Shown: one piece after another, positions 4,433-62,480 of the stretch
Layout: each line of letters opens with the position of its first letter
Position numbering within the stretch: the stretch's first letter is position 1
Origin: Moniliella sp. 'wahieum'
Taxonomy: Eukaryota
Reading direction: 5' to 3'
Length of the DNA stretch: 64,000 nucleotides
Assembly (NCBI GenBank): GCA_003971905.1
Contig: RSEE01000053.1
Location: 1-64,000, forward strand
Translations under genes and position numbers: made by a program
The notes under the pieces: generated by a model
The model's database searches: none
The model's input: only the letters and a program-made list of their open reading frames with translations
What the model was told of the DNA's origin: nothing

Positions 4433-4661
4433 TGATGAGACCTGGAGTGTGGATGGTCTTTGAGGGTGATGCAATCGCACTGGTGGTGGAGGTGGTCTAA
4501 GCCAACCAGCAACACCTACAAGGAACAGCAAGCAGCGAGTCGCCACCAGGGGTTATGCTGCGGAACAAGGAAAACAGGAGAGAGAAAACAACAGAACTCC
4601 CAGGCCTAAGGAGGAACTGAAGGGACATTGGCCAAAGCACGACCCACCCGATGGCTCAACA
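4433..4661 (-). mobile_element. Solo LTR, family A (~230 bp)
   Basis: Ends TGTTGAG...CTCATCA on the minus strand, with a perfect 5-bp target-site duplication TGAAC (4428-4432 and 4662-4666). Homologous end to end with 28420-28654. Strand is given relative to that copy. Confidence 0.88.
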
Positions 4662-5079: not shown

Positions 5080-6560
5080 CCCCCGCCCACCACCTTTCCC
5101 GCCATCATCTTGCTCTTGAACCAGTACTGCCACTCTACAATGCCTCCCTCCACCGTCAGGACGCCCTAGTAACAGCAACGCCGCTCGCCGCCCGAGAGGG
5201 AGATCCACGACGTATCAACCCTGAGCCGGAGCCCGTGGTGGAGACTGCTTTCGACGGTGACGAACCGTCCCCTGAAGAACCACCTGGTGGCACCAGTAGG
5301 GTCAACAGCGATTCCGACATCGACTCCGACGGCGGAGAGGGAAAAGAGGAGTACGAACCGAGACTTACGTTGTAGTCCCTCCCTCCCTGGTTCCCGTGTT
5401 GGTTCGTGAAATGATTATACGGGGTCAATTGAACCAGCAGACGACGACGATGAACAACGAAGAAGTTGCGCTGGATCTTGACGCTGACACCTTGTTCCCC
5501 CGCACAATGGACGCTGACGAAGAGAGCTCCGTTAATCAGGACGAATTTGCTGGCATTCCCCCTCTGATCTGGCCCTTTCGCCGGGTTGGATCCATATTTC
5601 ATCGATCCCCTCGTTACAAGGGCAACATTGATCACTCAGCGAGGAAAGCCTATGCGAGATCAAGACTCTTCGGGTTCTCTTTTTTGTCAATCAATGCGAA
5701 GCAGGAGTCGTTGGCCAAAGGCTTTACCATGTCCAACCCACGCCAGTATTTCGAACGCTTACTGGAGCACAAAAAGGTCAGGACCATCAGCTCTCGCCGC
5801 ACACCCCAGGATTACTTTGAACTATACTGACACTTTCTCTTTCCATGAACGGATCGCCACTGACAGAAATGGTACAAATGGCTCGCGGTATGGGTTTGTC
5901 TGCATCCCGAGAGCAGCATCGGCAACAATTAAGGATTTAGGCTTTTGGTTTTCTGTCCACAAGCGGCTTGTTCCCCGCGAGGTCTGGAAGAGTTCACTTT
6001 TGACCTGGGACAACTCCTGGCCCATATCCTTCGTGTGACAAAAAGTTTGTCCAAGTTCTGTTGACCGTGTTCCAGAAAGAAGCCGACTTGGTCGACCATG
6101 CGTCGTCGCATTTTCGATTTGGCGGTACGCGTTTTTTATGCTTACACTGGTCATGACCTTGCTACCCCCTAACCTAACTCATTGCTTTGGAAAAGAAGGT
6201 GGCCACAGGAGATGGTGAATGTGTGGTCCTGGGTGCTGAAGGGGCATCAAGTTTGAAGGGCAACGTTTAAGGCCGCGATGGCGAAAGTTGATGTGGCCGC
6301 AGTCCAGAATGGACACCCTAACCCACCCAACAAATGCATTTGATGATCGAACTTACGATTAAACAAGTGCGAATTGCTTGGATATATACCCTTGGCGCAA
6401 ACATGAGGTTAAGCGAAGTATTTTCTATTATAGCGAGATTTGGATAATGGCCAAACCCACTAGAGCTTATGGCCGTGCTTTTAAACCATTTGTTCCGGGA
6501 ACTTGGGTTTATCCCATACCAACCCCGCAGCCGTGCAGCCAGCGTCCGCCCGTCACTGTT
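5080..6560 (+). pseudogene. Degenerate or frameshifted coding region of unknown family
   Basis: Overlapping protein-like ORF pieces (5396-5830, 5586-6038, 6378-6650), an acidic N-terminal part and an intron-like GTACGC...CTAAC segment near 6125-6200. No recognisable domain. Confidence 0.3.
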
Positions 6561-8934
6561 ATGGGGTGCTCCGGTCATCTCTCCGGACACCGAGCCCCGC
6601 ATTTCGTAGAACTCTCATCGAAGCACACGCCAGCCCCTCGACATTTGTGAGTAAGAGTCAGCACGGACCACTTACCGCGGATATGTTCCGCGGAGAGCCA
6701 CAGGAAAGGACCGGACTTAGCGGTACGAGGCTTCGTATCCGCGGCGTCCGGTCTTGATAGAACTCCACATCGACTGAGGCCCACCGGATCGCAGTCTGCC
6801 AGGCAGAACACAGGCCGCCCTTTACCTTTTACTATGATTGTAGACTCCCCTTCCTTCTGTTGATGCCTATTCTGATGTTACGGTATATACTATAAGCAGC
6901 CCGATCTGAGGCTTGCTGGCGGTGATCCTCACCGCCCAACCCCCGTCTACCCTAGTCTACCTACGTCAATTCACGTCTATACCCCCGACTTCCCTCTCCA
7001 TTCTTCACCCTTATACGCTTACAGGATCATTAGCTTGACTGCTAAATTACTCTCAAACTTGGTTGGGCTTTTTTGGGAGCGAGCTTCGTCAGTAACAGGT
7101 TTTAGATCGGATCGAATCGGCGGAACCCGTAGCAAAGGTGTGTCCGAGTACGACCAGGGAAGATATTGTGACGTGACGATACAGTATCCACCGAAAGCAG
7201 CTTTGCCATATCTTTTCCTCCTGGTCGCAGGCTGTTTGAAGGGGAGGGAGATATGACGCTATAACGTTTTCTTTTAGACCTCTCTTCCACCGTTTAGTAG
7301 CCGACTGAGTTCTTCTGCACGGATCTGTGGGGTGGAAGGACTTCTGGTGTAGTAACTCTGTAATCAGTTCTTCCCGTCCCCACTTACTCTAACTTTGTCC
7401 TCCGCGCCTGCTGCAACCAATCCCTCTTTTGACATGTCTTCCTTTATGCCACGGGCGACGATAAGTCGCCTTGCACACAGCCACTTTCACTCACTTATTG
7501 TCCCTCTCGCTTCTTGGCTCCTCTTCGTATCACTAGTCAAGTTCTCTATCGTTCGCTATTGCTCTCGCTATCATGATTCGGATTCTCGGCCTACCTACAA
7601 AACCCACAACAATCGTTTCTTCTCCGCTCGCGCACGTCTAAAATCCAAACACTAATATACATATGGTTTCGACTCCGTTTCTGTGGCCTCCCGTTTCTGG
7701 TATCGGGTCCGTTTTGCCCTTGACCCTCGCCTCGTCTCTCACCTCGTGCCTCTCGTGCTTGGGCTTGACTTCTTCCCTTTGACTTGTTTCCCCTTTTCGC
7801 TGCAGACCTGTTGGTCTTTCCTTTGTTTCCCTTCTCTTCTATAAAACCAGCCTGTTCTTAGACCCAATCGTGATGGCCTAAGCCATACACAATTCTTTCC
7901 CCTCACCCTTCTTCTATTAGGCAAGCTCCATTCTAGAAGAACTATACCTTTTCGATCAGCTCACTTGTCCTCCCTCGCCCATCGGAGCTCCCCGCTTCCT
8001 CGTCCGGCCCCCCAACGTGCAACCTCATTTGCTCACGCTGCCTGGATCTGCCCGACGAACAGCAAAGCTCTACTCGCGACCCTCCTACGTTCACGCCCGT
8101 GTTGTTCCTTGGACATTGGATCTGAAACGCGTTCAGTACTCCGTGAGTCTTGTCTCCGATGGGCAGGGAAGGTCTCCGCCTGGGAAGCCAGCAACCCCAT
8201 TACACTTTTTATACGCCTATATTGCCTCTATTTTTCAGTTTCGATCTAGCCTCTACCGGGGAGCTCTACCCCTGTGGTTGGTGGAGATGCTTTCCTCACC
8301 TGCCCAACTCCTGACCGTTTCCAGCCAATTGATTCAGTACAGGCAACCTCGTCTCCACTTAGTTGCCTCTTCGTCTTCCGGCCTCGTCACCTAGCCGGTT
8401 CCATCCGCCCAGTCGCGCGAGCCTTCCGTTAGCCGCGTCGAGGCCCGGTACCAGCCTATCGCGCGGGTTCCTTTCCAGCCACCTCGTCAGCTGCTCCTGT
8501 TCAGTCCCAGCTCTGATGGCAGTGTTGTCCTCCACTGCTTCTACCTTTCCTCAAGGCCCGGAGGCTTAAGACACGTTAGTACTACCGCCCGAGCCGGGGC
8601 GCACGCAGCCTTGCCACACGTGCAGCCGCCTCCGCTTCACGCACAAAAAGGCCTCTCCTCGTCCCGAGTTCCATTCGGATCTACCAACTAGTCCAAACCC
8701 GAAACTACCGTAAGTCGTCCTTCCGTCTGCTAAGGGGCTGTACCCCACAAACCTGAGCGAGCCCCTGGCCGGGCCCGCCCGTGATAGAAGCTTGATCCAG
8801 GGGGGTGAGAATTTAGCGGGAAAGAGTGCCAAGTACCAGGAAAGAGGTGCTCATCTGAAATCCGTTTCCCCCCCTGGTGGCAATGACGACGCGTGCTACC
8901 AAGACTAATGAGAAAATGTTTGACTCCAAACATG

Positions 8935-16415: not shown

Positions 16416-17520
16416 CTAGTCACGTAGCCACGCCTGGTTGGCCGCTTTGCGCGCCCGTTTGCGTGCCTGAAATTCTTTGACTTGCTTTTTGGTCGGATGG
16501 CGATGGACGTCATGAGCAGACCGTTGAACAGCGGTGCCACCGCTGGCTCCATGGGCATACACTTGGTCTCGTGCCCGCTGGGCCAACTGGGATGGATCGT
16601 ACACCTTATCATTCTCCATAGCATCCTTGGGACCTTCAGGCCCATGCGCCTGGGTACGCGCCCATAGCGCGCCATACGCCGATGCCCCCCGCGCCGCAGC
16701 GATTGCTGGATCGTACGTGCCTGGATCGAGATAGGCCAAGTCGGGATCTACCTCCTGAGGGTAGGCGGAGGAAGTGGATTGTGAGAGGAGGGAATGGTCA
16801 TCTTGAGGTTGAAGTTGGGGTTGAGTTGTAGGAGTTGCTGACGTGGTGCGTACTCCAGCAGATGCAGGGTTCGTATGCGGTACAGTCCAGGTCGTCTCGT
16901 TGGTATGGGCATTCCAGTAATAGTATGCCCCCGCCGATGGATCCCAAACTGGTATGGCATAGCACGGGTACAGCAGGGTTAATATGATCCATCACTCGCT
17001 TCATCGAGAAAAGACAACAACAAAACGTACCTGCTCGCCACCCGGCTGCGGTAGCAGCTTGACCCGCTGCCTGAGCCTCGGCATCGGGGGAGGAAAGCTC
17101 CCGAGTCGAAGGGAAGGTGTCATGGCTAGGCAGCGGGGGTTCCTCTTCCAGAAGCGGAGGCTGTTCATCCGGTAGTGGTGGTTGCTCATCCGGCAGCGGA
17201 GGCTCCTCGTCCGGAAGGGGAGGCTCCTCGTCCGGAAGGGGAGGCTCCTCGTCCGGAAGGGGAGGCTCCTCGTCCGGAAGGGGAGGCTCCTCGTCCGGAA
17301 GGGGAGGCTCCTCGTCCGGAAGGGGAGGCTCCTCCCGGAAGGGGAGGCTCCTCGTCCGGAAGGGGAGGCTCCTCGTCCGGAAGGGGAGGCTCCTCGTCCG
17401 GAAGGGGAGGCTCCTCGTCCGGAAGGGAGGCTCCTCATCCGGAGAGCGAGACGCTTTCCGTTTTGGTGGAGGTGCGTATGAGGTAGGAGCGGGTGAGGAA
17501 CGCTTGCGTGATGGCGGCAT
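16416..17520 (-). CDS. WW-domain protein with N-terminal (DEEPPLP)n array; intron 16949-17030
   Basis: Splicing GTACGT...CCAG gives GWRAVWDPSAGAYYYWNAHTNETTWTVP, a WW domain. It is followed by VDPDLAYLDP and a basic C-terminus PTKKQVKEFQARKRARKAANQAWLRD. Confidence 0.8.
17127..17441 (-). repeat. Coding 21-bp minisatellite, about 15 units
   Basis: Unit GACGAGGAGCCTCCCCTTCCG (DEEPPLP). Most copies are identical, the last few are degenerate, and two units carry small deletions. Confidence 0.95.
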
Positions 17521-20059: not shown

Positions 20060-21391
20060 GGAGCAGGAGCGGCCGGGCGGCTTCTGGTGGGGCAAGGATT
20101 GGGGAGGTGGTGGATGTGTGTGTGGAGAGGAAGCGGAGACCCCTGTGCTGGGTATGTGCCAGTGAGTGCATATGGACTTAGGGGAGTTTGATCCAAGCCA
20201 TTTCGGGTGCGGCGTGCTGAGTGGCTGAGCGGCGCCCAAGTGGATTATATTGCCCTAATCACAAAAACGCAAAAAACTGCACTGCATTAGTGTGTGCGCA
20301 CAGGCGCGCAGCCTCAGGCCTGAGGCTGGGGTGTGCGTTCAGGCGCGCGGGGATGCGCAAAGCAATTGGTGCGAGACGATGCGAGGGCTGCTTGAAGATG
20401 ACGATGATGCTCAATGATGCAGAGTGGGTTCTGCCGGAGCACAGAACAGGGGATGGGTTAGGCTGTGAGCCCAACAGGAGGGAGGATTGCGTCGACGTCA
20501 TGAATGACCGCATTGCAATGAGAGGCCATTGGGCAGCAAAGCAGATAGATCGATGAGCGATGGTCGATGGTCGCTATGGTCGGTGACGCTGAGGCCGAGG
20601 GCAGCACTCCAGTTGCGTCATGCGCGTCGTCATGACGCGCATGTGTGGCTGCCGCTATGGGGTGTGCGGGTGGTACTTAAAGGGCACTGGTGTGAAAAGG
20701 GGGGCACACGGGTGGGCCATTGGATGGCTTGCGCCTTGGGTCTGTCTGGCGGGTCTGGGAATGGAGCAAGCTACAGAACTTCAAGTCTGAACTTCGTAAA
20801 AAAAAAAAGCGGACCAAAGGGAGCGCAGGCACGAGGCCAGTGTAAGATACTAGCACGGGGCAACCGCTGGGCGCGGGGTCTGCGTCCGCGGCGGCTTCGA
20901 CGTCATCGATCCTGCATCTTCCTCCCTAGTGCCTACCAACTACCACCAATCAAACAGGACAGGAGCACAACCGACCAGGGTGGAAGCAGACGCATCTCAG
21001 GCTCAGCTCAGCAATCAGGCTCAGGCTGAGCCATCAGCTGATGGCTGATGGCTGATGCTGATGCACGATGCTCGAGATAATCGAGACTGGTAAGCGTATC
21101 CCTATGTATGTCCAACCCACGCAGACGGCAGACGCCTGCAGGCGCGAGTAACAGTGCTGACGTCATCCCCTCCATCCACCAGCACGAATGGTGCATCACA
21201 CGTTCATCACAGCCCACCCCCGGTCACCTGACCAGCCTGCGCGACCCGCTCGAAATTCCGCATGGGCGCAGCCCCACTCGGGACTCGGGCCTCGGACACT
21301 CGGCGCGCTCACCACGCCAGGCGCCAGCAATTCACATCAGGGCAGCAACACTACTAGCCTCGCACTCCTCTGCCCCCCGCCAGTGGCACGT

Positions 21392-23849: not shown

Positions 23850-23944
23850 GCTTCAATGGGTTAGTGGTATACTACATCGTTGCCAGACTGGCCCCGTGCC
23901 TGTGAGACATCGATGTGACAGGGGTTCGATTCCCCTTTGAAGCA
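23850..23944 (+). tRNA. tRNA-Gly(GCC) with 24-nt intron (23886-23909)
   Basis: GCTTCAA/TTGAAGC acceptor stem, CATCG-TTGCCA|T-CGATG anticodon arm, AGGGG-TTCGATT-CCCCT T arm, intron at the canonical 37/38 position, followed by a T6 Pol III terminator. Confidence 0.95.
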
Positions 23945-26960: not shown

Positions 26961-28419
26961 GGGCCCGGGATTAACAAGCATGATGACGGAGGTTGGCTCG
27001 TGGTGGCGGCAAAGCTGGTGGTGTATACGGTGTCCCGGGGCCCTTAGGCGAGATCCGATTTGGGGGTGAGAAAAGAGGCTTCCGGGCTAGGCTGAAATGG
27101 CTGGACTGCACTGGAGCCGAGCAGAGGGAGGATGGCCACAGTGTGCGTTGGAGGGAAGGAGTAGTGACCGAAGCGGACGGGCGAGGAGAAGAGCGAGATG
27201 CGATATAGTAGCGAGCGTTGGCCCTGTTTGCTGTAATGCCCACCACCCACGGTGTGCGGTGTGTGAAAGAGGCGAGCGGGAAACGGGGTGGATCAGTCAA
27301 ATAAGCTCGGGACAGACCCTGTATATAATGGGAGCTGCTCTCTCGCAATATCGGCGCTATAAGACATGGCAGATCAGCGAGCGTTTGTGGCAAGACTGGA
27401 GGATGTTGCTATACTGAACTTGGTCTCCCGTAGTGAACTTAATTTCCAGTAGCATTACATGGTAGCAACGGGGCGTTGCTGCGAGTTGCCTGCCTTTTCG
27501 GCCCCCGGATATCCACAATGGCCTGTTGGCTGGCTCTTCTCTTGGAGGGCAATGCTTAATGAGGACTGGCATCGAGTGCCGCAGTAGGGGCGCTTGCGGC
27601 GAAGCGGAGTATCAGGGTCGGATATCTATCAGGCTGAAGGCCATGCTTACGACTGCGGAGCACAACTGACTTGCGCAGAGCAGGCGACGATGACGGCGTA
27701 CTCGCAAGAATCATCGGCCTGCGGCGGTCCCATTATGCATTAGGCCTCTCAGGCTGAGGGCCTCAGTCCCTCTGGTCTTCTTCCTGAGGCCTCAGGCCAC
27801 CCCGACTCAGTCTCGTCTCACTCTTTATATAACCCCCTGCAGCGGTCAGCCAGCAGCGAGCCGCAGACGAAAAGGGCTACACAGCTTAGCGACAGCTCCA
27901 ACCGAAGCAGAGGCAATTGCACTTCAAGCTTCATCAACATGCCTTGATGAACCCTGCGAGTTGAGCTTACCGCCGTGCTGGCTCCACCGGTATGGGCAAC
28001 GACCGTGCAGGTGAACTTTGTACGCGCGTTGTCGAGTCAGTGCTTAGCCGCGCGGTGCGCTATAATAGGATCCGCCTTGACAACCCCCTATACCCCGCCG
28101 GGTGCTGCGGGGCGTAGGCGGGTACGGGCGCGGGTTCTCCATATGACAACAGGAAAAATGATATATTTTTTAAGCGACGCCAGCAAAGAGGATGCCAAGA
28201 AAGAGTAGAGGGATATTGATTGCTAGCTGGACTGCGAAGCTGAAGCTTGAAGCTCCATACTTTTTGAACGTGATAAGCTTGGCGCTTTTTTAGAGCGACG
28301 ACGCGCTGTGTGGTTCACATGTAACATGTAACACATCTTGGCCGATCGGGATTTACCGGAATGGATGCGACGCACATCTCGATGACTAGATGACTGTTGT
28401 ACCCCATTGACAAGAAAGA

Positions 28420-28654
28420 TGTTGAGCCATCAGGTGGCTCGTGCTTGGGCCAATGTCCCTTCAGTTCCTCCTCAGGCCTAGGAGTTCCGTTGTTTTTCTC
28501 TCCTACTGTTTTTCCTTGTTCCGCAGCTGCCCCTGTGGCGACTCGCTGCTTGATGTTCCTCTGTAGGCGTGCTGGTTGGCTTAGACCACCACCACCACCA
28601 CCACTAGTGCGATTGCATCACCCTCGAGGACCATCTGGACTCCAGGTCTCATCA
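28420..28654 (+). mobile_element. Solo LTR, family A (~235 bp)
   Basis: Ends TGTTGAG...CTCATCA, with a perfect 5-bp TSD AAAGA (28415-28419 and 28655-28659). Inverted homologue of 4433-4661. Confidence 0.88.
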
Positions 28655-29172
28655 AAAGAGGGCGATTGTACTTCTCTCGGGTCCACCAATACCAGTGCGG
28701 CCATCTTCCTCGTTTGTTTTTTCCTCCCCTCTCCCGCTTCAATTGTTTTTGTTTCCTCTTCCCCGCTTTTATTGTTTTTTTTTTCCTCGCCGCCTCTTCC
28801 TCGCATCATTATCATTCCTCTTCCTCGCACAGCTCTTCTTCTTCCTTCCCTCCTCTCTTCGCTTATCTCCGACCGTTACCGAATCTACCCTATATCTCCT
28901 TCATCTGGAAACGACCGGTGGCCACACACGTAGATTATACTCAACGTATACTGTCCTAATTTATATTATGCGGGGCGTTGTACATCAGCGCCATGACCTG
29001 CATCTGTGCATCAGCGTTGCACTTGATTAGTCATAGCTTTATTCTCATTCATCAACGTTCAAAATACTTCTACGTCATCGAAGTTGGACGTGTGTGGCAA
29101 CCAGCTGCGTACCCTTTTTTGAGCCCCAAAGTCCACCCAACTCCGCTCCCTGCCTTGTCAATCTCCTCAGTC

Positions 29173-29330
29173 TGTGACGCCTCACTGGTGTAGTGGAGCC
29201 GGTAGCCCAAGTCCGGAACCTTTGGTTTGTTCCGTGCAATAGTCCTTCCTGGCCGCAGGAGATATTCTCTAGCCTCTGCAGTCATGTGCAATGCAATACA
29301 CTACCACTGCCTGCTCTCTGGTCTATAACA
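29173..29330 (+). mobile_element. Solo LTR, family B (~158 bp)
   Basis: TGTGACG...TAACA. Aligns end to end with 62320-62480. No TSD preserved. Confidence 0.72.
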
Positions 29331-31199
29331 CATCGCTCCTACAAGATCCGATCGTACACCACAGATCCATTACAGGCGAGAGATTATCAATAGCATGCTA
29401 TGGTATGGCATGTTATACATGTGAGGGTGACAGTGACCAATGCGTATGTATGATGCTCGGATCGAGTGATCAATGACTAGATGACTTTGGATGGTCGATG
29501 GACAGGCAGTTGCATGGCCCGGTGCCTGTCGAAACTTATGTTTTTGACAGACGTTTTTGACGTCGCGTCACGCGTCACGCGTCACCAAGGACCTTTTGGC
29601 AGTACTTGACCGATAAGCAATTTGACATTTGGTGGGGTTTTTATATACCCGGTACCGGCACCACCCTCATAGTTTCTCCAACCGTACACACCGCAGCACC
29701 TTGGCATGGCCCCACTAGCTTGCTCTGGTCACAACCCGGTCACGTGACCCACCCCACACCGAACTGACCCTGCACAAGCGAATGCTTTTGGCATGTTGAA
29801 CCTACGCGTTCGCTGCACGTTGACAATGAACGTTGGAGCGAGGAGGTACGTTGGAGGTACGTTGAACTCCTCAGTTCTCTCTTAACGTTCAACGCCCGCA
29901 GACAAAAACGCTCCTGTTGACCGGCAACAGTGGCCCAATCCAACTACCCTTAGGCCTTAGGCATCAGTACATCAGTACCAACAGTGGGCTGGGCCTCAGC
30001 GAGGGCTCTGCCCACTGAGCCCAGGCGCCACAGCCTGCTAGCCCTCAGGCCCTTCAGGCCATACTCAGACCTCACCGGCGAGCTTCAAGAGCTTCACTCT
30101 CACGTTTCTCGGCAGACAGCTTGTTGCGCCGTGCGCGGGACGAACCAGTGGCCGCAATCATATGGCCCCTACTGACCGAAAGAGCTAAGGAGCTGATTGT
30201 GAGCAGGACGGAGTGAACGGAGTATCGAGTATCGATGAGTACGCCGAGTGGAAGCGGTCTGATTGATCTGAGTAATGAATTGCGGCCAGTTGGTCATGGC
30301 GCAACAGGTTGTATCGAGTGGAGTGTGCCTCTCCCCGGACGGGCACCAACCCTCACATCACACATCCGCTTCCTCTGTCTCCCATCGCTCCATCGCCCTT
30401 CCCTCTCACCGCACGTCCAGCCTCCCTAAGTCCTGAACATTCCGTTGCTCCTACGGTTCGTCTCTCGCCCAGCCCAGACATTTTGCGTCTCACGAGAAGG
30501 AGCACTGGCAACCCCCGGTTCGAGACCCCAAGTTCTCAGCCCAAGGCGACCACGGTATGCAATGCCGAATGCCTGCAGCAGGGCTGCTTTAGCTCTGTGA
30601 GTGCCACGCCCAAGCATCAAGCCCCTCTCACCTTTCGACTCGGCCGGGCTGAATGCGAACCTGCTGTCCAAGTGGTCCCGCTGCAGAAGCGCTGGAGCCA
30701 TCCAGTTTCTCATTTTGCTCAATAAGGGCGAGCCCACCGCAAGACGGCCGGCGACACCGTCGCCCCCATGCCTCAAGACTACAACACGTGGTCGCAATCC
30801 CGTCTCTAGCGCACCCACTGGGATGGCGGACTGAAAGCAAGGGCCGTATTAAGTGCCGAGCGCCCCCGTGGTATGGATTGATCAGACTTGTTTCGTTCGG
30901 GCTTGTTCTTTTGTGTGGCTGCTGCCGTGGCGGGGACGCTCATCTCTCTCGCATATGTTCGTCCTTGGCCCTCGGCGTCCTGGTCGACCTCCCTCCGCTC
31001 TTCCTTGCTCTTGTCTAAGAACGTTTTAGGGGGGGAACTTGTTACGTAGAGAAGACAACTTGACCTAGCCAGACCCTGTGCGATGGTGGCATTACTAATT
31101 AATTTCTGAGGCTACGCGCTAGCTCTTCCGTCTTTTGGGATTCTGGGTTCGCGTCTATCCCTTCTCTCCACGACCGACACGGCTTCCCCTTGATCCTTC

Positions 31200-32560
31200 G
31201 TGCCCCGTTCCCCGTGCCCCGTTTCCCGTTCCCCTTCCCCGTTCCCCGTTCCCCGTTCCCCGTTCCCCGTGCCCCGACGTTCCCCCCGCGTGCTCGTGAT
31301 CATCGCGTGTTCCTTTGGCCATCCGACTGCGGCGCGTTGGTCACGGGTCCCGGTCACGCGCGGCGCGCCAAGCTCCTCTTTCTCTGATGCTTCCGACTTA
31401 ACGTTTCTCACCAACTTTCCTAGCGTGAGCAGCTGGAGCGCGTATTGTGTGTGTTCTGTGTCACTGTGCAGCGTGTAAGTACAGTACAGTACAGTGGCTA
31501 GATTTGACCTCACCAGTCACCCCCCAACCTCACCAACCAATTCATACCTCCACCGGCTACGTTCCAAAATCCTAACCACTGAATCGTCCTAGTAACCTCT
31601 CCCTGTCCTATCCTACCCAATCTCGATCCTATTCGATCCTGTTCGGAGCGCGTCGTAGCTCAGTAGGGGGTTCGAGAGAGATAAATCAAATTATTCGGTA
31701 CGACGAGCAGAGAATGTGCGGGGAGGCAGAGGGGGAGGAGGGGGAGGATCGAGAGAGATGGCACGCTGTGGTACAGATCGGAGAGCAGGTAAGGGGGGGG
31801 GGGAACAAAAACAACGAGAACGGGAACAGTAGGTAGGTAGGTAGGTAGCGCGTTTGAGTTTGTCGTCTTGCAACTTATTTTGCTTGCTTTTGTTTTGCCT
31901 TTTGGATTTTCCTGCTCTTGCCCGCGGGTGTCACTGCAGCCCCCCCCGGGACGCTCGGTTGGCGGGTCCGAAAAGAGCTTGCGGCACGACTCCGCAAACC
32001 ATGCCCCCGCAACCCCAAGAAAACAGTGGGAAGGAAGAAAGACGGCAACCACAAATCAAACCAAAACGCAAGCGCAAATAAACGCAAAACGCAAAAAAGA
32101 AGGTGCAAAAAAGCATGAACCAATGAGCAAAAAGCAAAAAACAACGGAGAAGGAGCACAAGCACAAGCACAAGCACAAGCACAAGCACAAAAGACGAAAC
32201 GATAATGGGAAAAGGGAAAAGAGGGAGAAAAGATAATGAGAAGGTGAGGGAGTGGGGGGTGGGGAGTACAGTGATCTTTTTCTCACCGGAGAGAAGAAAG
32301 GGGGGAAAGGGCACTGGGCACTGAGCATTGAGCACTGGACAAGGAGAAAACAGAAAAGAGACACGAGAAGAGAAAAGAAAAAGGCGGCGGTAGGAGATAG
32401 ATGGGGTCCCAAGCAAAGCAAAGCAAAGCAAAGCAAAACGTGCAGGCATAGCAAAAAAAGGGTTCGGATAGATATAGAGAGGTACGAATCGTAGCATAAA
32501 GCGCGGCCGCGTGAAACCGCAAAAGGGTAGTCGACCCGAATCGAATCGAATCAAATCAAA
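31200..32560. repeat. Cluster of simple-sequence repeats
   Basis: (CCCCGTT)n at 31200-31290, (GTAG)n at ~31828-31847, (GCACAA)n at ~32155-32190, (GCAAA)n at ~32412-32437, (TCGAA)n at ~32540-32565. Confidence 0.85.
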
Positions 32561-35738: not shown

Positions 35739-38199
35739 GGTGTGTGGGTGTGTGGGCTAGGATGCAGGCGTACGGCTAGCAGGTGGGCGGGCAGGCAGCG
35801 GTGGTGGGAGTGGGAGTGGGAGTGGGAGAGGAGCGGACGCGCGAAGCGCATCGGGGGGCCGCAGGAGCGGGACGGAAGGAGGTGGTGGGGTGCGGGTGGA
35901 AGAGGGCGGGGGGTCGGAGCGGATGGGTGGGGTGGGCGAGCAGGTGCTGGGCTTGGCTTGGCCTGTTTTTCTCAGGCGGTTGGCTGCTGGCGTCTGCGCT
36001 GCTGAGGCGCTCGGATGGCCAGTGCTCCGCATGTATGCAGCATGCCGCCTGCTGCTCTCCGAGCGGGGCTTGCGACGCAAAGCCCAAGCCAGGCCCTGCC
36101 GCTCGGCCCGCACCCGGCCAGTGTGCGGCGCGCTGCCAGGGGGCGTGCTGGGTGGGTGGCCACACCCTGCGTCCTGCCCCCTGCATCTGCATCCCGCTCG
36201 GCTGCATCACCCATTCGATCACCATCCCACAGACCCTGCAGCCCACCCGACAGTGCCCGTCTGCTGGCTGCCGCCACCTGGTGTGGCTTTGGTGTGGGAA
36301 GTGGCTGGCTTCAGCGCTTCAAGCTTCCGTTGTCAATCGGCGCAACGCTCCCGCTGGCGTCGTGCCCGGTGTCTGCCGCTGCTGCTGCCCCGCCCCTTCT
36401 CCGCTTGGCGCCACTGCCACCATCCACCCTCCCACGCCCCTCACCCGTCCTTCGCCTCTCACCCGCCACACGTCCGATCTCCGATCTCAGATCGCTTGAA
36501 TAGTTTCATTTCTCTCCATTTTAGCGTCTCTCACCATCCCAAGCCATCGACTTGATGAGTGAGATCTGAGATCTGACAGTGTACTCGCTGGCCTGCGTGT
36601 CCCGGGTACGTACGGTACGCTGGGCCTGGCACACGGTACATGTTACACGTTGGTATTCGTAGTAGACCCTAGGCCCTTTTCCTGCTGCAGTCTCCTGTGA
36701 CCCTACCGCCCCAACCCGCGTCCAGCCTGAGCCTCAGGCTGAGGGCTCACACATGCATGTAGTTCTGCTTACGCGGTCCCGGCCACCCCATTCGACCTGT
36801 TCAATTGAACGCTCAGCGTTTCAAGCGACAACAAGCGATGGACGTATGGACCCCAGCTGCCCCAATAGCAGCCGTACCATGTACCATGGAAGAGGCAGCA
36901 GCTCGGAAACAGCCGTGCATCGGCCGTAGGTCCGTCTGTTTTGCCGCGGCTGGCTGCTGGCGAACTGCCCGCTTATTGAGTACAGACAGCTAGGCTTCAA
37001 GGTCTTCTTCAAGCTTCAAGCGTCACGCGTCACGCGTCACGCTTCGGCAAGCTATATCGTCACTCTTCTGATCGATCATTAGTTCGTGCAGGGACCAAGA
37101 GGTCGCAAGATCCCATGCATCCTTCGAAGGCATCCTCGGTATGTTCGGTATGTTCAGGCTTCCAGAACCCTTCTGGAGTACTCGGAACGACGTATGATTG
37201 GATCCATCGATGACGCAATGACGTTTGCGCTCGTCCAGGTTCCGACCGCAACCGCCCACTCGGTCTTTGAGCTCCAGCTCCAACTGAAGTTCAAGCTTCA
37301 CAGCTTCGAATATCAGAAGATCCGATACCTAGAGCTCCAAGCTTCACTGGCTTCACGCTCAGGCCAGGCTTTGGTGGAGCTTCAAGCTTCAGTATACTCA
37401 GTACTGGAGTTACAATAAAGGTCTTCTGCTCTTCGTCCTGTGGGCCATGATACAGGCCGCAGGTGCATGGTGCATGGCCTAGGTGTGGTGCATGGGAAGA
37501 TGGATGGTCGATGATCGATGATCATGCATGGCCTGCTGCCCGCGATGAGACAGCCAGGGTGCGGCCGGGTCCCGAACGGTTGACCGAACGGGCGACCGAA
37601 CCGAGCATCCTGCCTCCCAAAGTACTCATCGACCATCCTATCAACGTATCAACCCACTCGTTCATGGTCTTCTATCGAACATCCGTCAAATCTATCCCCA
37701 GCGGTTGGTGCAGATGGCTTGATGCGGATGCGCCTTGGCCTTACCGGTTGCCTGGCCCCACCACCGGGGCGCTTCCGATGCACCGAGGCCAATGAAGCTA
37801 CGGAAGCTTCAAGCGGCACGCTGATGATCGATGACCTTTTTTGCCTTTAGTCCTTTGAAATTTGAGCTTGAGCACCCCGGTAACCGGGAACCGGGAACCC
37901 CGATACCCTGTACCCTGGGACCCTATGCTATCCGGAACCCAGAAACCGTTGTCGCCATCTCAAAACGCCACTGCCTCGTCGAGAAGGAAGGTACGAACGC
38001 TGAAATTTGAAACCTTGAACCGCACACCTGAATCTGAGACTGCACAATGACACTGCGGTGCTAACCCGCTCGCCCCCCAAAGCATAGGATCAGGAAGGGC
38101 CAGGCTGACGCTGTGCAAACCCCTAAAGCAAGCATTGCATGAACTTTGGGGCAATCCGGGACAGGGGGGAACGCAAAAAAATGAAGGAAAGAAAAAGTA

Positions 38200-38294
38200 T
38201 GCTTCAAAGGGGAATCGAACCCCTGTCACATCGATGTCTCACAGGCACAGGGCCAGTCTGGCAACGATGTAGTATACCACTAACCCATTGAAGC
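38200..38294 (-). tRNA. tRNA-Gly(GCC) with 24-nt intron
   Basis: Reverse complement of 23850-23944 with one C/T difference in the intron, followed by a T5 terminator. Confidence 0.95.
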
Positions 38295-39055
38295 GTGCTG
38301 AAGAGCAAATGCAACGTATGTTCACCCCATGAGTCCTCCTCGCCGCTGGCACAATCAGTTGTGCGCATAGATCAGGCGCCGGCGTTCGCACCATGCCGGC
38401 AACAACGTCAACTTGCTTCGAGAGACGATGGAGGCTAAAAGGGGTCGAGGTCATCGTCAGGTCAGAACGGATGGTGGACGGGCGAGCCACAAGGCAAGGT
38501 GGGCGGCATGCGACATGCGACAAGTAAACTTAAGCAGTCTATAGGCCTGTGTGCAGCGGCCCCGTTCCGCGTCTGGTCCGTCTCTCCTTGTTGCACTTCG
38601 GGACTGTCTTTGCGTGATTGCATCCCCATCGATTCATTCCTGGCCTTCATCTGCTTGAGCAGCTTGATCCTTCACAGATCTCACCGGCCATTGCATGAAC
38701 TTCGTGTGGTGGGGTTGAACTGCCAAGGCCGGAAAACATACAGAGCCTCACAGGACCAACGAGTCCCAACGAGACCAGCTCCAAGCTCCAAGCTCCAAGC
38801 TTCAAGCTTCCATCAAAGCAACCCCCAACATCCAACATCCAACCCCAATCTACCGCTCCCAGCGCCGAATACGAATCTGCTACGCACCTGAGGCCTGATC
38901 GATGATCCCGCACCACCCACCGCCCTAACCCGCGGGTCGTAGCGTCCCGCACAAGCACCCCACGCACGCAAACAACAACTTCCAAGCAGAGACCAAAAGA
39001 GGGGATCAAAGAAGAACACAGAGCCAAGAAAAAAAAGAAAGAAAGAAAGAAGGGA

Positions 39056-39151
39056 AGCAAGGAGGAAAGGAGGAAAGGAGGCAAGGAGGAAAGGAGGCAA
39101 GGACGAAAGGAGGCAAGGAGGAAAGGAGGCAAGGAGGAAAGGAGGCAAGGA
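39056..39151. repeat. Purine-rich 8/16-bp tandem repeat (AGGAGGAA/AGGAGGCA)n, followed by (CCAAA/CCAAG)n
   Basis: About 12 eight-bp units, mostly alternating A/C at one position. Confidence 0.9.
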
Positions 39152-39351
39152 TCCGGATACCGATGCCCGCCAAACCAAACCAAACCAAACCAAGCCAAGC
39201 CAAGCCAAACAAAAAAACGAGCGTATGTGATGGGGGGGTGATAGGTAGTAGGTGATAAGTTCCTTCGCCGCACCTTGACGTTTAACGTTTAACGTTTAAC
39301 CTGCGCGCGCAACTCGTACGCGGTTTACGAAAACGCGTTACGCGTTACGCG

Positions 39352-41549
39352 TTAGGTGGCGACGTAGGTGCCTGCCTGGGCCGAGCGTGTGGCCGAGACG
39401 AAGGTATCCTGTCCAGCCTGGACCAAGGCCAGAGCGACGTCCGACCGGTCCCGTCGGTGGTCCAGGACGCTTGACAGGTTGCGCCTCGCCAGCCGGGACG
39501 AAGAAGCGGGCGCGAATGACGCCAGCTTGGGCGAGAGCGGAGCGGGGGAGGGCCCAGCGCGCAGACCTGTAGATAAATCAAACGATTCTGTCTCAGGAAT
39601 CGCTTGGACGTGAGTGGTGTGTGGGACAGTGGTTTCCACCACCACCTCGTCTAACTTCGGGGCCAACTTGCCCCCAGCCTCGTAGCGCAGGAGCAAGTCC
39701 GCATGGTCCTCCAGCACACGCCACTGTGCCTGCAACTGAAGCGGGATGGACTGGGTCTGCTCAGCCGGGTCGATATGGACTTGGTACTTGGCCAGGACGA
39801 CTTTGGTCCGTTCCTGTGCCAGGGCAGCCAAGTTCAAGTCCCATTCGCCTGTTCCGGCGGCGGGCTGTAGGAAAGCCGGGTTGGGCACCAAGCGGTCCAA
39901 GTTTTGCGCTTGGTCCAGGCGGACGGGGACGCTGGCCAGCCGGTGGGATGGCAGTTGGGTTCACGATAGCTTCTAGGTCCCCAACAACCATGAGGCGAGA
40001 AACCGAGGGTACCAGTAAAGTAGACATTGACCTTTTCTGCCACATTGATCTTGAGTGCGTTCGCAGGCAGGGTAGGCGCCGGGGTCAAACTGGGTGCTTC
40101 GGTAGTAAATGGATCTTCGGGATCGGGGTGGCGGTGGTGGTGGCACCATACGGAGACGGAGGTGCACGACGGGTGGACGAGCCGCGACGCACGCCGGTTT
40201 GGGCGGTGCCAAGTACCCCGTAGCGACTGCAGTGCCTCATCGTCCTGCGCCGACGTAGGGGGAGGGGAGACAGACAAGGTACTCAAGTCCGGGGGCGCAG
40301 CACCATTGGAGAGAAGAGCAGCACCCGCGGCGCCAGCTACAGCTCGCGCCAGCGCCAACGCCGGCGCCCAAAGCGACCTGTGATCCGCGTGAGACGGTTG
40401 GAGAGGAGCAAAGTGGCCATCGCGCTCCGCCGGATCGTCAGCCAACAAGTCTACTGCTACGTCGGGCGTATCGCGCACATCTTCTTGGATCGGCGGTGGG
40501 CCAAAGTCTGGGGCGGGACTGCCGGAATGGTGAGTGAACAGCTTGGTGGCCCGCTTGCTACCGAGCAACGTCTTGCCACGGCGGATGAAGCCTCCCGAGG
40601 GGGCCTCAGATACCTGGGACTCGGGCGAGTTGCTCCGCGCGGGCACGGGAGGGGGTTCCTTGTGACTCTGTCGGCGGCCGAACCGGCCCAACGCGCCTCG
40701 CAGACCGGAAGGTTTGGGCTCGTCCACTCGCGCCGCGGTGTGGGTTCTCCCCTGCTTTCGGCCAACGCCTCTGACGGCGGGAGAGGGCGGGAGCGGAATG
40801 AGAGGAGGCGGTGGAGCAGGACGTCGATGTTGCCACTTGGGCAAAGGAAAGTACCTCGTGCTCCACGTCCAGGCCCAACGAAGCTTGCAGCGCCATCTCA
40901 GCCGCGTTGGACAACTGATGGGCCGAGTCGGCGGCGCCCGTTTAAATTGAGCCACCACCTCTTTCAACAGGGTGAGACGTTCGACGTCGGCGCGCTGGGC
41001 CAGCTGGAACGCCGGGCCGCATCTTTGCGCCACTGAATCAACGCTTGGTCCACATCCTTCTGCATCTGGGCCACGGTGCGCGGCCGACTGTTGCGTCTGC
41101 TCCGAATTCGAGTCGAGCTTACGCGACTCGCGCGTCAGCCCCGACTCGAGCAGGTTCAAGTCGCGTGTCGTATCGTGCAACCGGTCTTCGAACGCGGGAG
41201 AGCTGGGCCCAGGCACCTTGGACGGGGCTTCGCGCACCTGTTGTTCACACAGGTGCACCGCGCGTTCGCGTGCGGCATGGACCTGGGTCAAGGCGTCGAG
41301 TTCGCTCATGAGGGCGTCGAGGATGGGACGAACGCCGCGGGGCGCACGTGCGGGAAAAGCACGGGCGCTTGGCCAGCTGGACAGGGCGCGGGCATGGGAG
41401 GCCTCGACGGCGCGGCGCGCAGCAAAGTAGTCGCCCAGTTCATCGCAGAGGGCAGAGGCGTCGCGGAAGCGCTGCTGGAGGAGCTGGGTGGCTCCTTGGG
41501 GTCGGCGTGGGGAAGCGCTGGCGTACGCCTGGGTGGAGAGCTCGGCCAA
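39352..41549 (-). CDS. SYP1: Muniscin Syp1/FCHo-like endocytic adaptor (F-BAR plus mu-homology domain); frameshifted
   Basis: Helical N-terminus (DELGDYFAARRAVEASHARAL; ERLTLLKEVVAQF), Pro-rich linker, and C-terminal INVAEKVNVYFTG..VVGDL, LVPNPAFL, VLAKYQVH, IPLQL..QW, LLLRYE. The start reads CATTGGCC, probably ATGGCC with an extra T. Confidence 0.8.
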
Positions 41550-54656: not shown

Positions 54657-57600
54657 TGCGCGCGGGCGTGAGGAGATGTGGGAGGGTGGGGATGGAGGGG
54701 GCCGAGCCAGCGGCGGCGAAGGAGAGGATGGATGGGGTGAGGTTGGGTGGATGCTGGCGGCGACGGCTGATCTGAGGCGAAGGGCTGCTGGGTAACCCTA
54801 AGGGTGCCCAGGCGTCCAAGCCGCCGCCGCGCCTCGGGGCGCGTGGCCGGTGGGGCGGGTGGTTATGTCAGCAGATCGGCGGCCTATCCCAGGCACTCGG
54901 CCGCTGTGATCCGCGCGCGCGCGCCCGGCAGCGGTGGACCCTGGCGCAGCCTGGCACCAGCGGCAGCAGGGCGCTGATCGGCATCCCGACAGCGTGTGGC
55001 TGCCCCCATGCCTCCCGCGGGGGGCACTGCGAAAGTGACTGCGGGAGTCCGCAGCCTGCCACTCCAGCCCCAGCATACTCAGCCTCAGGCCTGAGAGGCC
55101 AGCCGCCGTCATGCTCATGCATCATGCATCATGCAGGACTGAAATTTGCAAGGAACGACCAATGACCCATCCGACGCTATAGCACAAAGCAGCAAGTAAA
55201 ATCCAAGCATTGTCCAACTCCATCGATATGAACCAGCAGCATCCACTGGTTCTCCGCTCCACCACTCTTGCCCCAAAACGTCCATTGCCACGCCATACCT
55301 ACTATACTACAACCGTATCATTGACAGAGCCTAAGGCTGGGACCACGAAACGCTGCGCCTAAACCGACCCGTTAACGCATCTCCTGCGTGTGCTGCTTGG
55401 TAGCGCCAACCCCGCTTAAGGAAACAGGGGAATCGCCAGCAGATCAGATTGGTGATATGGTATCCTCTCCAGCGTGAAACGGTGGACCGGCGGAACGATG
55501 GCTACGGTGGCGACGATCGTCCAGCACAAGCTGGGGCGAGAAGCCCCAGCAGCTGACCGGGCCGTAGGCCCGACGGTGGTCTCCTTGTACCTACTATAAC
55601 AACTTTCCCGCCCACCGGGGGTGTTGTTTTTCGAGATAAAGTAGTTCCAGCTGGCGCCTTCGATCATCTCGCTGCAAGTAACAACGTGTACCGTGCTTTC
55701 TCAAATACCACCGTCCCCCATCGGCTTTTGTACGGGGCTTCTGAATCCACAATATAGTGATAGTGACAAGATAATCGGTTGGACGTTGAACGTGTTGAAC
55801 TTGAACGCGTTGAACGTTGAAAGTTGACCTTTTTCTCCAGTCCAATCACAGTCTCGATCGACGCACGTCCGTTCCGTAAGTTGAGGGTAAGGCTCGGCAG
55901 GTCCCCACCCAGCTTCTCACAGAAAACTCACGCGCGTGGCGAGACGTCCATCTCATTTCCCAGAATACATGGTAAAATGTCGTCCTCGTCTCCGGCACCA
56001 TCACAACCTGCCCAAATCCACAATAAGAAACCGTCGGGTCCGCAGCCCCGCGGCCGTTGCGCTCTATTAATCAGTGTGGAGATAAGGAAGAGAGGGAGAG
56101 TCCCACACCCTGCAGATGATCATCTGGTGGAATTGTTGCTACCCGAAAAAGTATGTCTTCCTCTTCTTGTTCACACGTTCACATCTGGAGAAACCCAGAA
56201 CTCGGGGTCGGGTCCACGTAAGACCCACACAGTTCTAATGATTAATGACGAATGAGGGATGTGTATCCAATGTTGAAAGCGGTGGTCAAACATACAAGTG
56301 GGCGACTAGGTTAACACTCTCTCCCACAGCCCCGACGGATCATGGTCAATCCGCCCCCTCTCAGATGTAGGCCTGAGGCCTCAATATCAATTAAGGTAAA
56401 AAGGTAGGAGTTATATACAAAGGTATATATAGGCGCGGAAATGGTGCAGCACAGAAAGCAAAAAATAGGACCACACACGTGCAGCACATCTGTCACATGT
56501 CAAGCTTCAAGTCTCTCACACCCACCCAAGGGCCTAAGGCCTAAGGCCTCTAATCATTAATCACTTCGAATATGTCCGCTGTGAAATGGATAGTGCGGGA
56601 GAGAAAAAGAAATTCAGTGGCGTTGCCCTGCAGGCGTGTGCATATACCCTGTACATTTCCTGACATGCGGTTGTTGCTTGTGTGGGTGGAGCGTGGAGCC
56701 GTCTTTCTCCACTGTCTGTTGCCTAGAAGAGCATATTCGCAAACTTAATAATCGAGATCGAGAGTGACTAGTGACTAGCAGTGACTAGTGCTAGTGATAA
56801 TCGATAATGTGGGTATGATATATGAGCGATTGTAAGGGTCTGTGAGTTACTAACGCCGGTGCCATCTAACTATCACAGAGAAAACACACAGGAACCATCA
56901 GTGCATCAGTGCTCGCAGTCCTTCAGTGTGCTTCCGGCACATAATTTGTCACCACGACAGAGAGCCTGGATCTCCGCACAGAAAGTACAGAGGGTGGCAA
57001 CAAGACAGGGCAAGATCGCCCTTCCGTTAAACAGCTAGACTCTGGAAAAAGCCCAAAAGACATTCAAGTCCAGCCACGTGTAGCACACGGACTTACGATA
57101 GTCGATAACATCTGGAGGCGCGTAAGGCTCATGAAGTGCATGAAGCCGCTTGCAGCTTGACGCTTGCATCTTTCATCTTGCATCTTGCAAGATCACCTCG
57201 CCATATGGTCTCCCACCAAGTTTGCCAAGGCGCACTTTCACTTGACGAGTGCGACGAGCACATGCCATCCGCATCTCTCCATGATCACTCACAGCACGTC
57301 GAACAAAATTTCCTGCTGCCTCCCGCTCCGGGCCTCATCATGCCAAGAACGAGAGCGGGTCTATGGCGAGCCCAGACCCAGACTGAGGCCTGAGGGGCCT
57401 GACGCCTGTGCCTCACTCAGGTACTCAGGCATCTCAATCTCACGGCGTAGTCTGTTTTTGATTCCCCCACATGTTCTCGTTTGTGGCCACCGCACAGTGC
57501 CCCCATGCCTCGTCGCGTGTGGAGACCGGGTTTATCTAGGTGTGATTATCGCCTCTCGATCATCTCGATCATCGATTAATGCACTGGCCGACACTAAGGT

Positions 57601-60417: not shown

Positions 60418-62319
60418 AGCCGATGATCTTTTCCCCCGTGATTCATGTCGCTACTTCTAGTGCACGGCACTTTTTGCCAATCATCTTTTCGGTAACGGGC
60501 ACTCCGTACTTTGGACCAACCAGCTTCGTACTGTGGTTGTGGTCTATATTTACGTTGAGTGAATGACTTACGTTCAATGGTATATACTTACTTCTGTGAG
60601 CTGTGCGACTATATAATCCTAATAGTCCCAGACCTTTTTTCCTTCTTATCTGTTGCACTGTCATAGTTTGGCTGATCTCGCTTCTATTTCCAATTTCTTC
60701 GTCTCGAGCGTCTCGCTCTTTCCCTGTTTCTTCCACTTCGCACCATGTCCTCTGTCCTTGCTTCTTCCCCACGAACGATTGCTACACCCCTTGCCTAGCT
60801 AGTCCGATTCTGGTCTCCCTCTTCGCCTTAGCCCCGACTGTGACATGCAGGGGGAGTGCGTCTCATCTTGTTGGCTTTTAGAAAGAGTGATATCCTGTAC
60901 GCAACGCGCGACTAGGAGGGTAGAATACAACATGTGGTCCTCAAGCTGGTATGATGAAGTATGGCCCGTAGTTCAATGCTCTGTCGCGTATAATATACGC
61001 CCTCGGCTGCTTCTCTACTGCTGTGGCTGCTGTCTAGCGATGCAGGCGCACACAGCCGATTGCGTTCCGAAGGGCGTTCCAACTTTAAGCTTCAAGCTTC
61101 AACATTCAAAATTCAACGTTGATTGAATGTTCAGCCTGCCGCAATTTGGGCGGAATCCATAAGAATTGGCGGCTGCAGCGGTAATAATGTATTGCACCGA
61201 TTACCCTCCACCCAGGTTTTTCTTGTGCTGCCCTATTTATTCAGCCGTCCGACCCTTCAACCATTTGGACCACCACCACCACCACCACTCCAATCCCAAC
61301 CACCCCCACCACCACACCAATCCACCAACAAGTCCCCAGCAATGCATTCGGATCCTCGCTATTATCTACCTTCTGGTTTTGCTTGTTGCTGAACCTCTCC
61401 CATCGCTCGATGGAGCGCTTTGCTCCCGTGCAGAGAAGGACGAGATGATGATCCATTAACAATTAGAGTCAAGCACGGATCCAACCGCGTCGCAACGGTT
61501 GATGCCGATACGCTTTAAGCATTCTATCTGATTTCGTCCTTTCTCTGCCGGTTGCATTTGCCTTTCTCCTCGAGCCTGATGAGTGGAAGATTGTTCCAAT
61601 GCATGCTTTTTTCACCCGACTCTTCCTGTAGACTTATGGACGAGTCGCATCCAGAGGTGAGAAGCATGAGCATTTGAGGACATGAGAGGTTTGTTCTATC
61701 AGACCAGCCCGTACCGCCCAACAGGCCGAGCTGGCAGAGCGCAGGGCAGAACCGGAGGGAGGCCCAACGTCGACAAGGTGATGCACGACGGGGCGACCCC
61801 CCCTGCTCGTGCAAGCAAGAGGAACGCATAACCTGCATGACACGTCTACGTCGGAGAGAGTGACTGTCGGAAAATATTTGGTATCACAATGTGCATGAAG
61901 CATGAGCGTGATGCATGAAGCTGCAGCTTGAAGGCTACAAGCTAGTCAAGCTTCAAGCTTCAAGCTTCATCCTGACTTGTATCACAGAGCTTCATCGATA
62001 ATCCGAACGATCATCGAGATCATGGATCATCATAGACAGACACCATGCATCAACCAGCCGGGTTCCACCGTGGAGAACACCCGAGCTCAGGCGCTCAGGA
62101 GGAAGGACAGGAGAGCCGGCTATCTCTTCGTCCTGTGCTTGCCGCATTCCACGAGGTGTGACATGTGCGGTGCGTCCACATACTGTAAAACCAAGCAAAA
62201 TGGCGCAGTTCTCACGCGAAAGTTTCCGTGCCGTCTGGCTATCCTTTGCGATACCCCTCGACCCGACCGCACACCCATACGCGCCTGGTCGAGCAAGCAA
62301 GGTCGGGGGATGGCGCGGG

Positions 62320-62480
62320 TGTGACGCCACACTGGTGTAGTGGCGCCGGTAGCCCAAGTCCGGAACCTTCTGGTTTGTTCCGTGCAATATTCCTTCCTGG
62401 CTGGAAGGAATATTCTCTAGCCTCTGTAGCTCATGTGCAATGCAATTCACTACCAACTGCCTGTCCTCTGGTCTTCTACA
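62320..62480 (+). mobile_element. Solo LTR, family B (~161 bp)
   Basis: TGTGACG...CTACA with flanks GCGGG/GTGGG (4 of 5 TSD match). Homologous to 29173-29330. Confidence 0.78.

Follow-up and report, generated by a model that had tools for sequence, protein, structure and literature searches.

The intergenic DNA of Moniliella sp. 'wahieum' contains tandem 7-bp units in which a central TNA is flanked by complementary dinucleotides, and the question raised by these heptamer arrays is what process writes them. We analyzed a window of 64,000 nucleotides (positions 1-64000 of contig RSEE01000053.1, here C53, from the 69.5-Mb, 223-contig assembly GCA_003971905.1), a 464-kb sample made up of this window and 40 further loci, and, for other counts, 524 kb, amounting overall to ∼0.5 Mb per genomic copy. 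The arrays are real and genome-wide, and their elementary unit is not a palindromic target; it is a stereotyped insertion in which ab-TNA-cd becomes ab-TNA-cd-d'c'-TNA-cd, where d'c' is the inverted copy of cd, or the mirror form.

Heptamer arrays and their elementary unit

The original prediction quoted 17 stretches of the window as examples of such arrays. All 17 were recovered letter for letter, including the type array at 37007-37041 (CTTCAAG twice followed by CGTCACG three times), and 15 were strict runs of at least two palindromic TNA heptamers. The other two qualified only loosely; 4786-4813 is not a strict array and holds two imperfect units, and 38779-38806 is not a TNA array and consists largely of a CCA-centered variant. 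Three further window arrays, at 41753, 52632, and 61083, were absent from the prediction. As had been proposed, period 7 was in excess, with 58 perfect tandems in the window compared with 4.2 ± 2.5 in 20 local dinucleotide shuffles, and it was biased toward symmetry, with 28 of the 58 being palindromic (0.5 expected) and a TNA center in all 28. Periods 6 and 8 lacked such bias (16 of 84 and 1 of 12 palindromic, respectively). The 464-kb sample held 327 period-7 tandems, of which 170 were palindromic and 164 of those TNA-centered, and in the whole assembly CTTCAAG x2 occurred 3150 times, whereas its reversed control was found 0 times. The claimed diversity of flanking dinucleotides and of N was also confirmed: all 16 possible 4-bp cores were present, and N was G in 191, C in 183, T in 51, and A in 42 of 467 cases (C or G in 374). 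TCA or TGA accounted for 80% of the sites, and the bases adjoining TNA showed no strong preference. The noncoding location likewise held up, as none of the 61 TNA-palindrome-TNA 10-mers of the window lay inside 8,664 bp of Pfam-supported open reading frames, an absence that is partly trivial because TGA and TAA are stop codons; a coding proxy based on frame-preserving blocks, itself partly circular, gave 232 of 6,906 versus 24 of 1,982 TNA sites. Clustering was evident across the 524 kb, where 38% of neighbor distances were less than 100 bp. A sequencing or assembly artefact, or chance, has a negligible probability as the source, given a density ∼30-fold above that of the shuffles, the presence of decayed forms, and the finding that 143 of 253 single units, hereafter scars, are shared with the matching places in a second genomic copy, which shows that they are not an assembly artefact.

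The nature of the unit was apparent from the spacing and flanks of neighboring TNA triplets. Two TNAs of the same N separated by a 4-bp palindrome were observed 468 times versus 15.8 expected, and the same arrangement with N complemented 63 times versus 20 expected; when the palindromic spacer measured 3 or 5 bases, enrichment was barely evident (100 versus 70 and 34 versus 20). Among 488 isolated TNA-4-TNA pairs, the core was dictated by one flank in 67 cases of the form ab-TNA-cd-d'c'-TNA-cd (0.4 expected) and in 62 cases of its mirror (0.6 expected), fitted both flanks in 40 (0 expected), and fitted neither in 45 (13.4 expected); two different palindromic units were joined in 4 (1.0 expected). 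The control triplets ANT, GNC, and CNG yielded at most five cases per class. Strand bias was absent: among 194 clean events, N was C 77 times and G 71 times.

Three minor classes, with 8, 9, and 11 bases, define the geometry of the target. In counts pooled from both genomic copies, a single base separating the inverted pair from the second TNA equaled b in 77 of 89 cases, two such bases matched ab in 46 of 118 (7.4 expected by chance), and three sites kept both inverted tracts (6 of 36 strand matches, 0.14 expected). In one copy, the match to the left flank reached 1, 2, and 3 bases in 48, 35, and 11 of 85 members of the 9-base class and in 57, 38, and 8 of 66 members of the 8-base class. The match is near chance past two bases, and the duplicated target therefore ends after ab and is exactly 7 bp long, centered on TNA; the flank pattern of the 8-base class indicates an extra one-base overlap at the joint. 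Paired indels (insertions or deletions) between the copies included 2 of 12 at 9 bp with 7-bp homology plus two inverted bases, both TNA-centered, and 1 of 19 at 8 bp with 7-bp homology plus one inverted base, also TNA-centered. A genome-wide pattern of one core plus 2 to 4 extra bases matched 667 times compared with 52 for its reversed control. Doubled cores with a nonmatching left flank also occur genome-wide, and the model given below offers no explanation for them.

Differences between the two genomic copies

Each region tested has a second copy in the assembly (contig pairs C53/C29, C1/C25, C17/C62, and C40/C7), and judging by sequence these copies could be either two subgenomes, as in a hybrid, or two haplotypes. 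They differ by 3.0% (6,651 substitutions in 225,373 aligned columns) plus many small indels, and the indels peak at 7 bp, with counts of 61, 58, 95, 39, and 16 for lengths of 5 to 9 bp. A TNA-palindrome word, a category comprising 2.7% of random words, was inserted in 44 of the 87 well-flanked 7-bp indels, 22 on each side. The short allele was plain in 36 of the 44, and 28 of these 36 plain alleles lay on a nonpalindromic target; hence, the symmetry is created by the event and not demanded by the target. With stricter flanks, 17 of 68 consisted of exactly five duplicated bases plus two inverted ones, and 15 of the 17 were at TNA. The structure must have originated by insertion, although comparison of the copy pair does not polarize the events and some differences may be reversions. 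The rate was approximately one event per 150 substitutions. The 32 solo long terminal repeat (LTR) copies of four families that were used to polarize events held no clear TNA-type insertion in what was too little sequence to tell. The TNA preference is not absolute; five-plus-two insertions were also seen at TTG, TGG, and TGC, in the window at 42037, 49708, and 62909 (insertion in the second copy) and at L010:5533.

Repeated hits at one site from either side, plus some slippage, build the arrays. The 524 kb contained ∼415 arrays, of which 333, 65, 13, and 4 had one to four cores, respectively. Adjacent core pairs were mixed in 21 of 103 cases, and in 11 of the 21 both outer flanks were, by inspection, as predicted from such hits. 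Of 134 array ends, 101 lay no more than two bases from a TNA, compared with 3 in 7 for random phase. A slippage microsatellite was rejected on the basis of these ends and of the 164 TNA palindromes among the 327 period-7 tandems; slippage contributes later, and the stretch at 38777-38810 is most plausibly the result of a point change followed by slippage. The second copy of the type array reads CTTCAAG x3 plus CGTCACG x1, and the opposite unit counts indicate that the two blocks changed copy number independently. This array is slightly atypical in that its AG|CG joint is nonpalindromic, a class with 4 cases among the 488 isolated pairs.

Probable excision footprints and rival explanations

We consider that the arrays are, on balance, probably the piled-up excision footprints of a hairpin-forming cut-and-paste DNA transposon with a 7-bp TNA-centered target duplication. 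A two-fold symmetric enzyme would cut 3.5 bp to each side of N, and insertion followed by fill-in would give abTNAcd-element-abTNAcd. Excision would then close each host flank as a covalently sealed flush hairpin, a host nuclease would open the hairpin 2 to 3 bases off its tip, and end joining would keep one extension and trim the other end, the two mostly meeting at the T of TNA. This T is the sole microhomology present at every TNA site, so the +7 product, in which d'c'T meets T, would dominate. Re-insertion and ordinary slippage would lengthen the arrays. The element itself would be present in few copies, have diverged beyond the reach of the profiles used, or have been lost recently. The 7-base stagger, the whole 7-mer at both ends, the flush inverted bases, and the microhomology joins are best read as insertion followed by hairpin-type excision. 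Features expected of footprints were found, namely a target duplication of fixed length (a sharp 7-bp edge in the 8- and 9-base classes), inverted P-type flank bases at the joint (129 one-sided isolated scars versus ∼1 expected), and a plain allele at the matching site (the 36 of 44 TNA-type indels). If the mutation rate is taken as 2e-10 per base per generation, ∼7,000 differences at 3% divergence require ∼2e-5 events in each genome per generation, a rate that could be sustained by a few persistent copies. Of what was originally suggested, a dedicated process, the duplication of 7 bp, and fold-back following staggered cutting are retained, and a palindromic target, PIF/Harbinger elements, and a cis-element are not.

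Several observations weigh against footprints. For an element that cannot be seen, ∼415 arrays in 524 kb are a great many, and the model does not predict a class with the form TNA-cd-d'c'-cd-TNA-cd (31 of 155), also frequent in the genome-wide pattern. Flank matching is a property of every tandem duplication, and control triplets gave 4 to 8 matches among 7 to 24 cases; the plain 7-bp direct repeat, counted 17 times at TNA, was not enriched there relative to control triplets (22-25). The palindrome of Ac/Ds footprints, as described, centers on the complement of the element-adjoining base and the footprints vary, whereas here the palindrome is flush and even-centered (cd|d'c') with one dominant product. 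An exon-by-exon profile search of the genome with 16 transposase-type Pfam families (PF05699, PF13359, PF10551, PF18758, PF18759, PF03184, PF14372, PF04937, PF18803, PF20231, PF13358, PF04827, PF12940, PF00589, PF18802, and PF20515) gave no match, the control set being blank for 12 of the 16. No insertion flanked by a TNA-centered 7-mer was present in 235 kb of paired alignment, and none appeared in a scan of ∼0.86 Mb, ∼1% of the assembly, for terminal inverted repeats (TIRs) as well as duplications of the target site (TSDs), which is blind to TIR-less elements.

The positive control in the profile search, rve, matched 148 times in the genome; the profiles without a match there included those for KDZ, CxC1, CxC2, hAT, TET-type, RAG1, and MULE. 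Three zf-BED matches (L091, L092, and L093) were rejected as transposases, being host C2H2-like proteins; they form a small family with a conserved CPHC...HLQCKH finger that scores above the cut-off. The sole traces of DNA transposases in the genome were two broken Transposase_21 (CACTA/EnSpm-type) genes. These relics were dismissed as the source, because they are broken and because the C17/C62 pair, a single locus, predates the split of the copies and has no visible TIR or TSD. EnSpm/Plavaka elements are listed with TSDs of 2 to 3 bp (PMC12730594), so these relics do not match the scars. Apart from the arrays, the TIR/TSD scan turned up just chance pairs and a single LTR-like case. Solo LTRs made up most of the interspersed repeats in the DNA sampled, and two of them had 5-bp TSDs. 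Four solo LTR families are represented in the window at 28419-28655, 4432-4664, 60655-60846, 29173-29332, 62320-62480, and 2380-2728; the first of these has a 5-bp TSD and is missing from the second copy. Another interspersed family often starts beside telomere-like TTAGGG words (L015:5680-6443, L088:2241-2586, and window 6140-6950).

RAG coding ends are flush hairpins, and Transib and RAG make 5-bp target duplications. For hAT, Transib, RAG, and MULE systems, flank hairpins are described that are opened by host enzymes and end-joined (PMC5499845), and the host-side hairpin, host nuclease opening, and end joining of our model are thus held in common with Transib, RAG in V(D)J recombination, and the MULE Muta1. 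Muta1 excision in yeast, however, is given as >90% precise (PMC5499845), unlike the scars here. Ac/Ds footprints in fungi are reported to contain P nucleotides and microhomology, with 28 single-base-centered kinds in 128 (PMC5873905). Like those described for Ac/Ds in Candida albicans, budding yeast, and plants, the scars here keep the target duplication, carry a short inverted flank copy, and show microhomology at many joints; unlike them, they are TNA-centered, number approximately one per 1.3 kb, and have no element in view. A narrow-sense hAT (Ac/Ds) class was rejected since the palindromes here are flush and not centered on a single base. The basidiomycete elements hAT7 and Kyakuja (KDZ) are listed with 7-bp TSDs (PMC12730594), a likeness in duplication length; Kyakuja is TIR-less, and its listed hosts include Russulales, an order that offered a glimpse of a similar scar pattern. 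Cryptococcus KDZ elements are described with 8-bp TSDs (bioRxiv 2024.08.15.608186). A literature search at the level of titles and abstract openings found no description of this pattern, with its 7-bp target centered on TNA, its flush palindrome, its density across the genome, and its self-extension. The chemistry resembles that of known footprints, and the target, palindrome, density, and self-extension are without a published match found by this search.

Of the alternatives, the foremost, a host-encoded or domesticated transposase-like nuclease, making a 7-base stagger at TNA and hairpin ends with no resident element as a standing mutational process of the lineage, is possible but doubtful. 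It might act through cuts on sister chromatids or on a donor that is inserted and at once removed, perhaps weakly in other basidiomycetes as well. The searches made found no element in the genome, the two copies have been equally active from their split onward (22 and 22), the product is very stereotyped, and the same edges and mixed cores appear in Russulaceae-like and other fungal-looking contigs, all of which suit such an enzyme. The domesticated hAT enzyme Kat1 is described as making hairpin-capped breaks in yeast (PMC4763223), but Kat1 cuts one locus, the same transposase searches gave no candidate gene, and a whole 7-mer plus a flush hairpin on both ends is hard to obtain without something between them. 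In a broader form, which we think unlikely and put forward tentatively, an element-free, host-encoded cut-and-heal activity would write flank-templated 7-base units at TCA/TGA, weakly across basidiomycetes and very strongly here, and would be an unrecognized birth route for heptamer repeats. It is quite improbable that the units arise by replication template switching, with the nascent strand turning back 2 to 3 bases after cd, re-entering at TNA through its T/A symmetry, and slipping later. Template switching is reported to make short reverse-complement copies in one step (PMC8794818) and needs no dedicated enzyme, and slippage is clear on some arrays (38777-38810); it gives no reason, however, for TNA to be used over the equally symmetric ANT, GNC, and CNG (67 and 62 versus at most 5), and leaves the fixed 3.5-bp distance on both sides and the sites with two inverted tracts unexplained.

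The noncoding location, the clustering, and the prevalence of TCA/TGA would also suit a selected cis-element or protein-binding lattice with TGA/TCA half-sites 4 bases apart, or a structure read by its shape, as the original prediction allowed. This account is very improbable, as it leaves unexplained why one-sided units should differ from one genomic copy to the other. The core is set by one flank only and takes 16 forms, the presence of scars varies between copies that diverge by 3% (143 of 253 shared) with gains on both sides, and the complement-N pairs that a dyad binder should favor are 7 times rarer (63 versus 468). Also very improbable are footprints of PIF/Harbinger or NuwaII elements with a 3-bp TNA duplication, the former having been named as an example in the prediction. 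These elements have TNA at the target center in common with the scars, and NuwaII is described in fungi with a C|TNA|G target (PMC4482050). In contrast, the duplication here is 5 to 7 bp, 80% of the sites are TCA/TGA, there is no C/G preference beside TNA, excision of such elements is generally described as precise (PMC4561436), and PF13359 and PF04827 had no match in the genome. The 9-base class in large part refutes a 3-bp duplication, and the two-sided footprint of an element with a 3-bp TSD, which would join two different palindromic units, was rejected with 4 cases.

Whatever its agent, the process is a sequence-specific mutational signature that has marked a single genome tens of thousands of times and accounts for half of the 7-bp indels between its two copies, and through it ordinary sequence can be seen giving rise to short tandem repeats under a single exact rule. 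Sequence alone would reveal the geometry (7-base stagger, flush hairpins, and joining at T) of an enzyme that has not been seen. If that enzyme is a transposase, the scars are the footprint record of a nearly vanished element; if it is a host enzyme, they reveal a new source of mutation.

Other genomes and neighboring features

Occurrences of the rule can readily be counted in any fungal assembly. We sampled 80 of at least 120 metagenome stretches with (TCAAGCT)n, and these held 13 further one-sided scars in 454 kb compared with 325 in 460 kb of this genome. At 10 loci with eukaryote-type Pfam matches, 15 of 20 array ends fitted the rule (p 0.004) and 7 further scars were found versus 0.7 expected, two of them adjoining the seed; at 10 unassigned low-coding loci, 17 of 20 ends fitted, with 4 further scars versus 0.3 expected; and at 37 prokaryote-like loci, 28 of 74 ends fitted, with 8 scars versus 2.2 expected and 4 to 7 for control triplets. 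These groups were drawn after the ends were seen, and 23 loci were excluded as duplicates, short, or unassigned. Heptamer repeats of the prokaryote-like contigs have the (TCAAGCT)n word in common with the arrays here but differ in their random-phase ends (28 of 74 within two bases) and in having no other cores alongside. One contig closest to Lactarius and Russulaceae-like (L158) carries mixed-core TNA arrays. The data provide a hint, to be taken as a lead and not a result, that the same rule may operate in a few metagenomic fungal contigs. Mixed-core TNA arrays are also found in the fungal contigs L119 and L136. Phage-like stretches with a GP88 gene (L114, L139, L147, and L153) have (TCAAGCT)n arrays with random-phase ends, and AT-rich L123, with an RNA ligase gene, has two opposite (TCAAGCT)n arrays 4.4 kb apart, both ending at 0/2 phase.

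The spacer that holds the type array also contains 15 of the 61 scar 10-mers of the window. It is bordered by the 3' end of the minus-strand F-BAR gene, with its stop near 39352, and by the CCCH zinc-finger gene, also on the minus strand, with a likely start ATG at 35738. The window further encodes Zn2Cys6, OPT, and other fungal-type domains. The F-BAR protein has a sole named homologue, in Pseudozyma flocculosa (31% identity), which points to a basidiomycete related to the smuts as the likely source. A search of metagenomes for relatives by means of this protein confirmed none. The coordinates of individual features are collected in the table.

Table. Arrays, scars, and related features, by position in the window unless a contig is named
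Feature	Position	Remark
Type array, CTTCAAG x2 block	37007..37020	Three units in second copy (C29)
Type array, CGTCACG x3 block	37021..37041	One unit in second copy
First-round scar GATGA-TC-GATGA (5 duplicated, 2 inverted)	37823..37834	Second copy is a plain site
Plain site TCACA	36747..36751	Second copy is a scar, TCACA-TG-TCACA
First-round scar around TGA-TTAA-TGA	56236..56248	Second copy without scar
cc-TGA-GGCC-TGA-TCGA-TGA-tc, mixed cores	38887..38907	Left-hand plus right-hand event, ancestral site cc-TGA-tc
tg-TCA-CATG-TCA-AGCT-TCA-ag, mixed cores	56491..56511	Same logic of left-hand plus right-hand event
8-base class, ga-TGA-CTAG-A-TGA-ct	28381..28395	One-base overlap at joint
9-base class, 7-mer GTTGAAC, 2 inverted bases, 7-mer again	55785..55800	Whole target duplicated
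CCTCAGG-CCTGAGG	20312..20325	Minor class with N complemented; 27783-27796 alike
CTCCAAG x3 plus CTTCAAG	38777..38810	TNA-less unit repeated in register
GTTTAAC x3 and CGTTACG x2-3 arrays	39278..39354	3' end of F-BAR gene
(TCAAGCT)n, commonest core	61946..61969	Seed for metagenome control
Spacer holding type array	35739..39351 (3.6 kb)	Between F-BAR and CCCH zinc-finger genes
Broken EnSpm-type gene, stronger	C17:555595-559041 (L094)	Syntenic copy on C62 (L098)
Broken EnSpm-type gene, second	C34 (L095)	Profile match

Ordinary purine-rich or GC-rich tandem repeats at 39030-39150, 17129-17443, and 31200-31270 of the window differ in length between the two copies. The window also carries tRNA-Gly(GCC) genes at 23850-23944 (plus strand) and 38200-38294 (minus strand), which have a 24-base intron and belong to a family of ∼40 copies.

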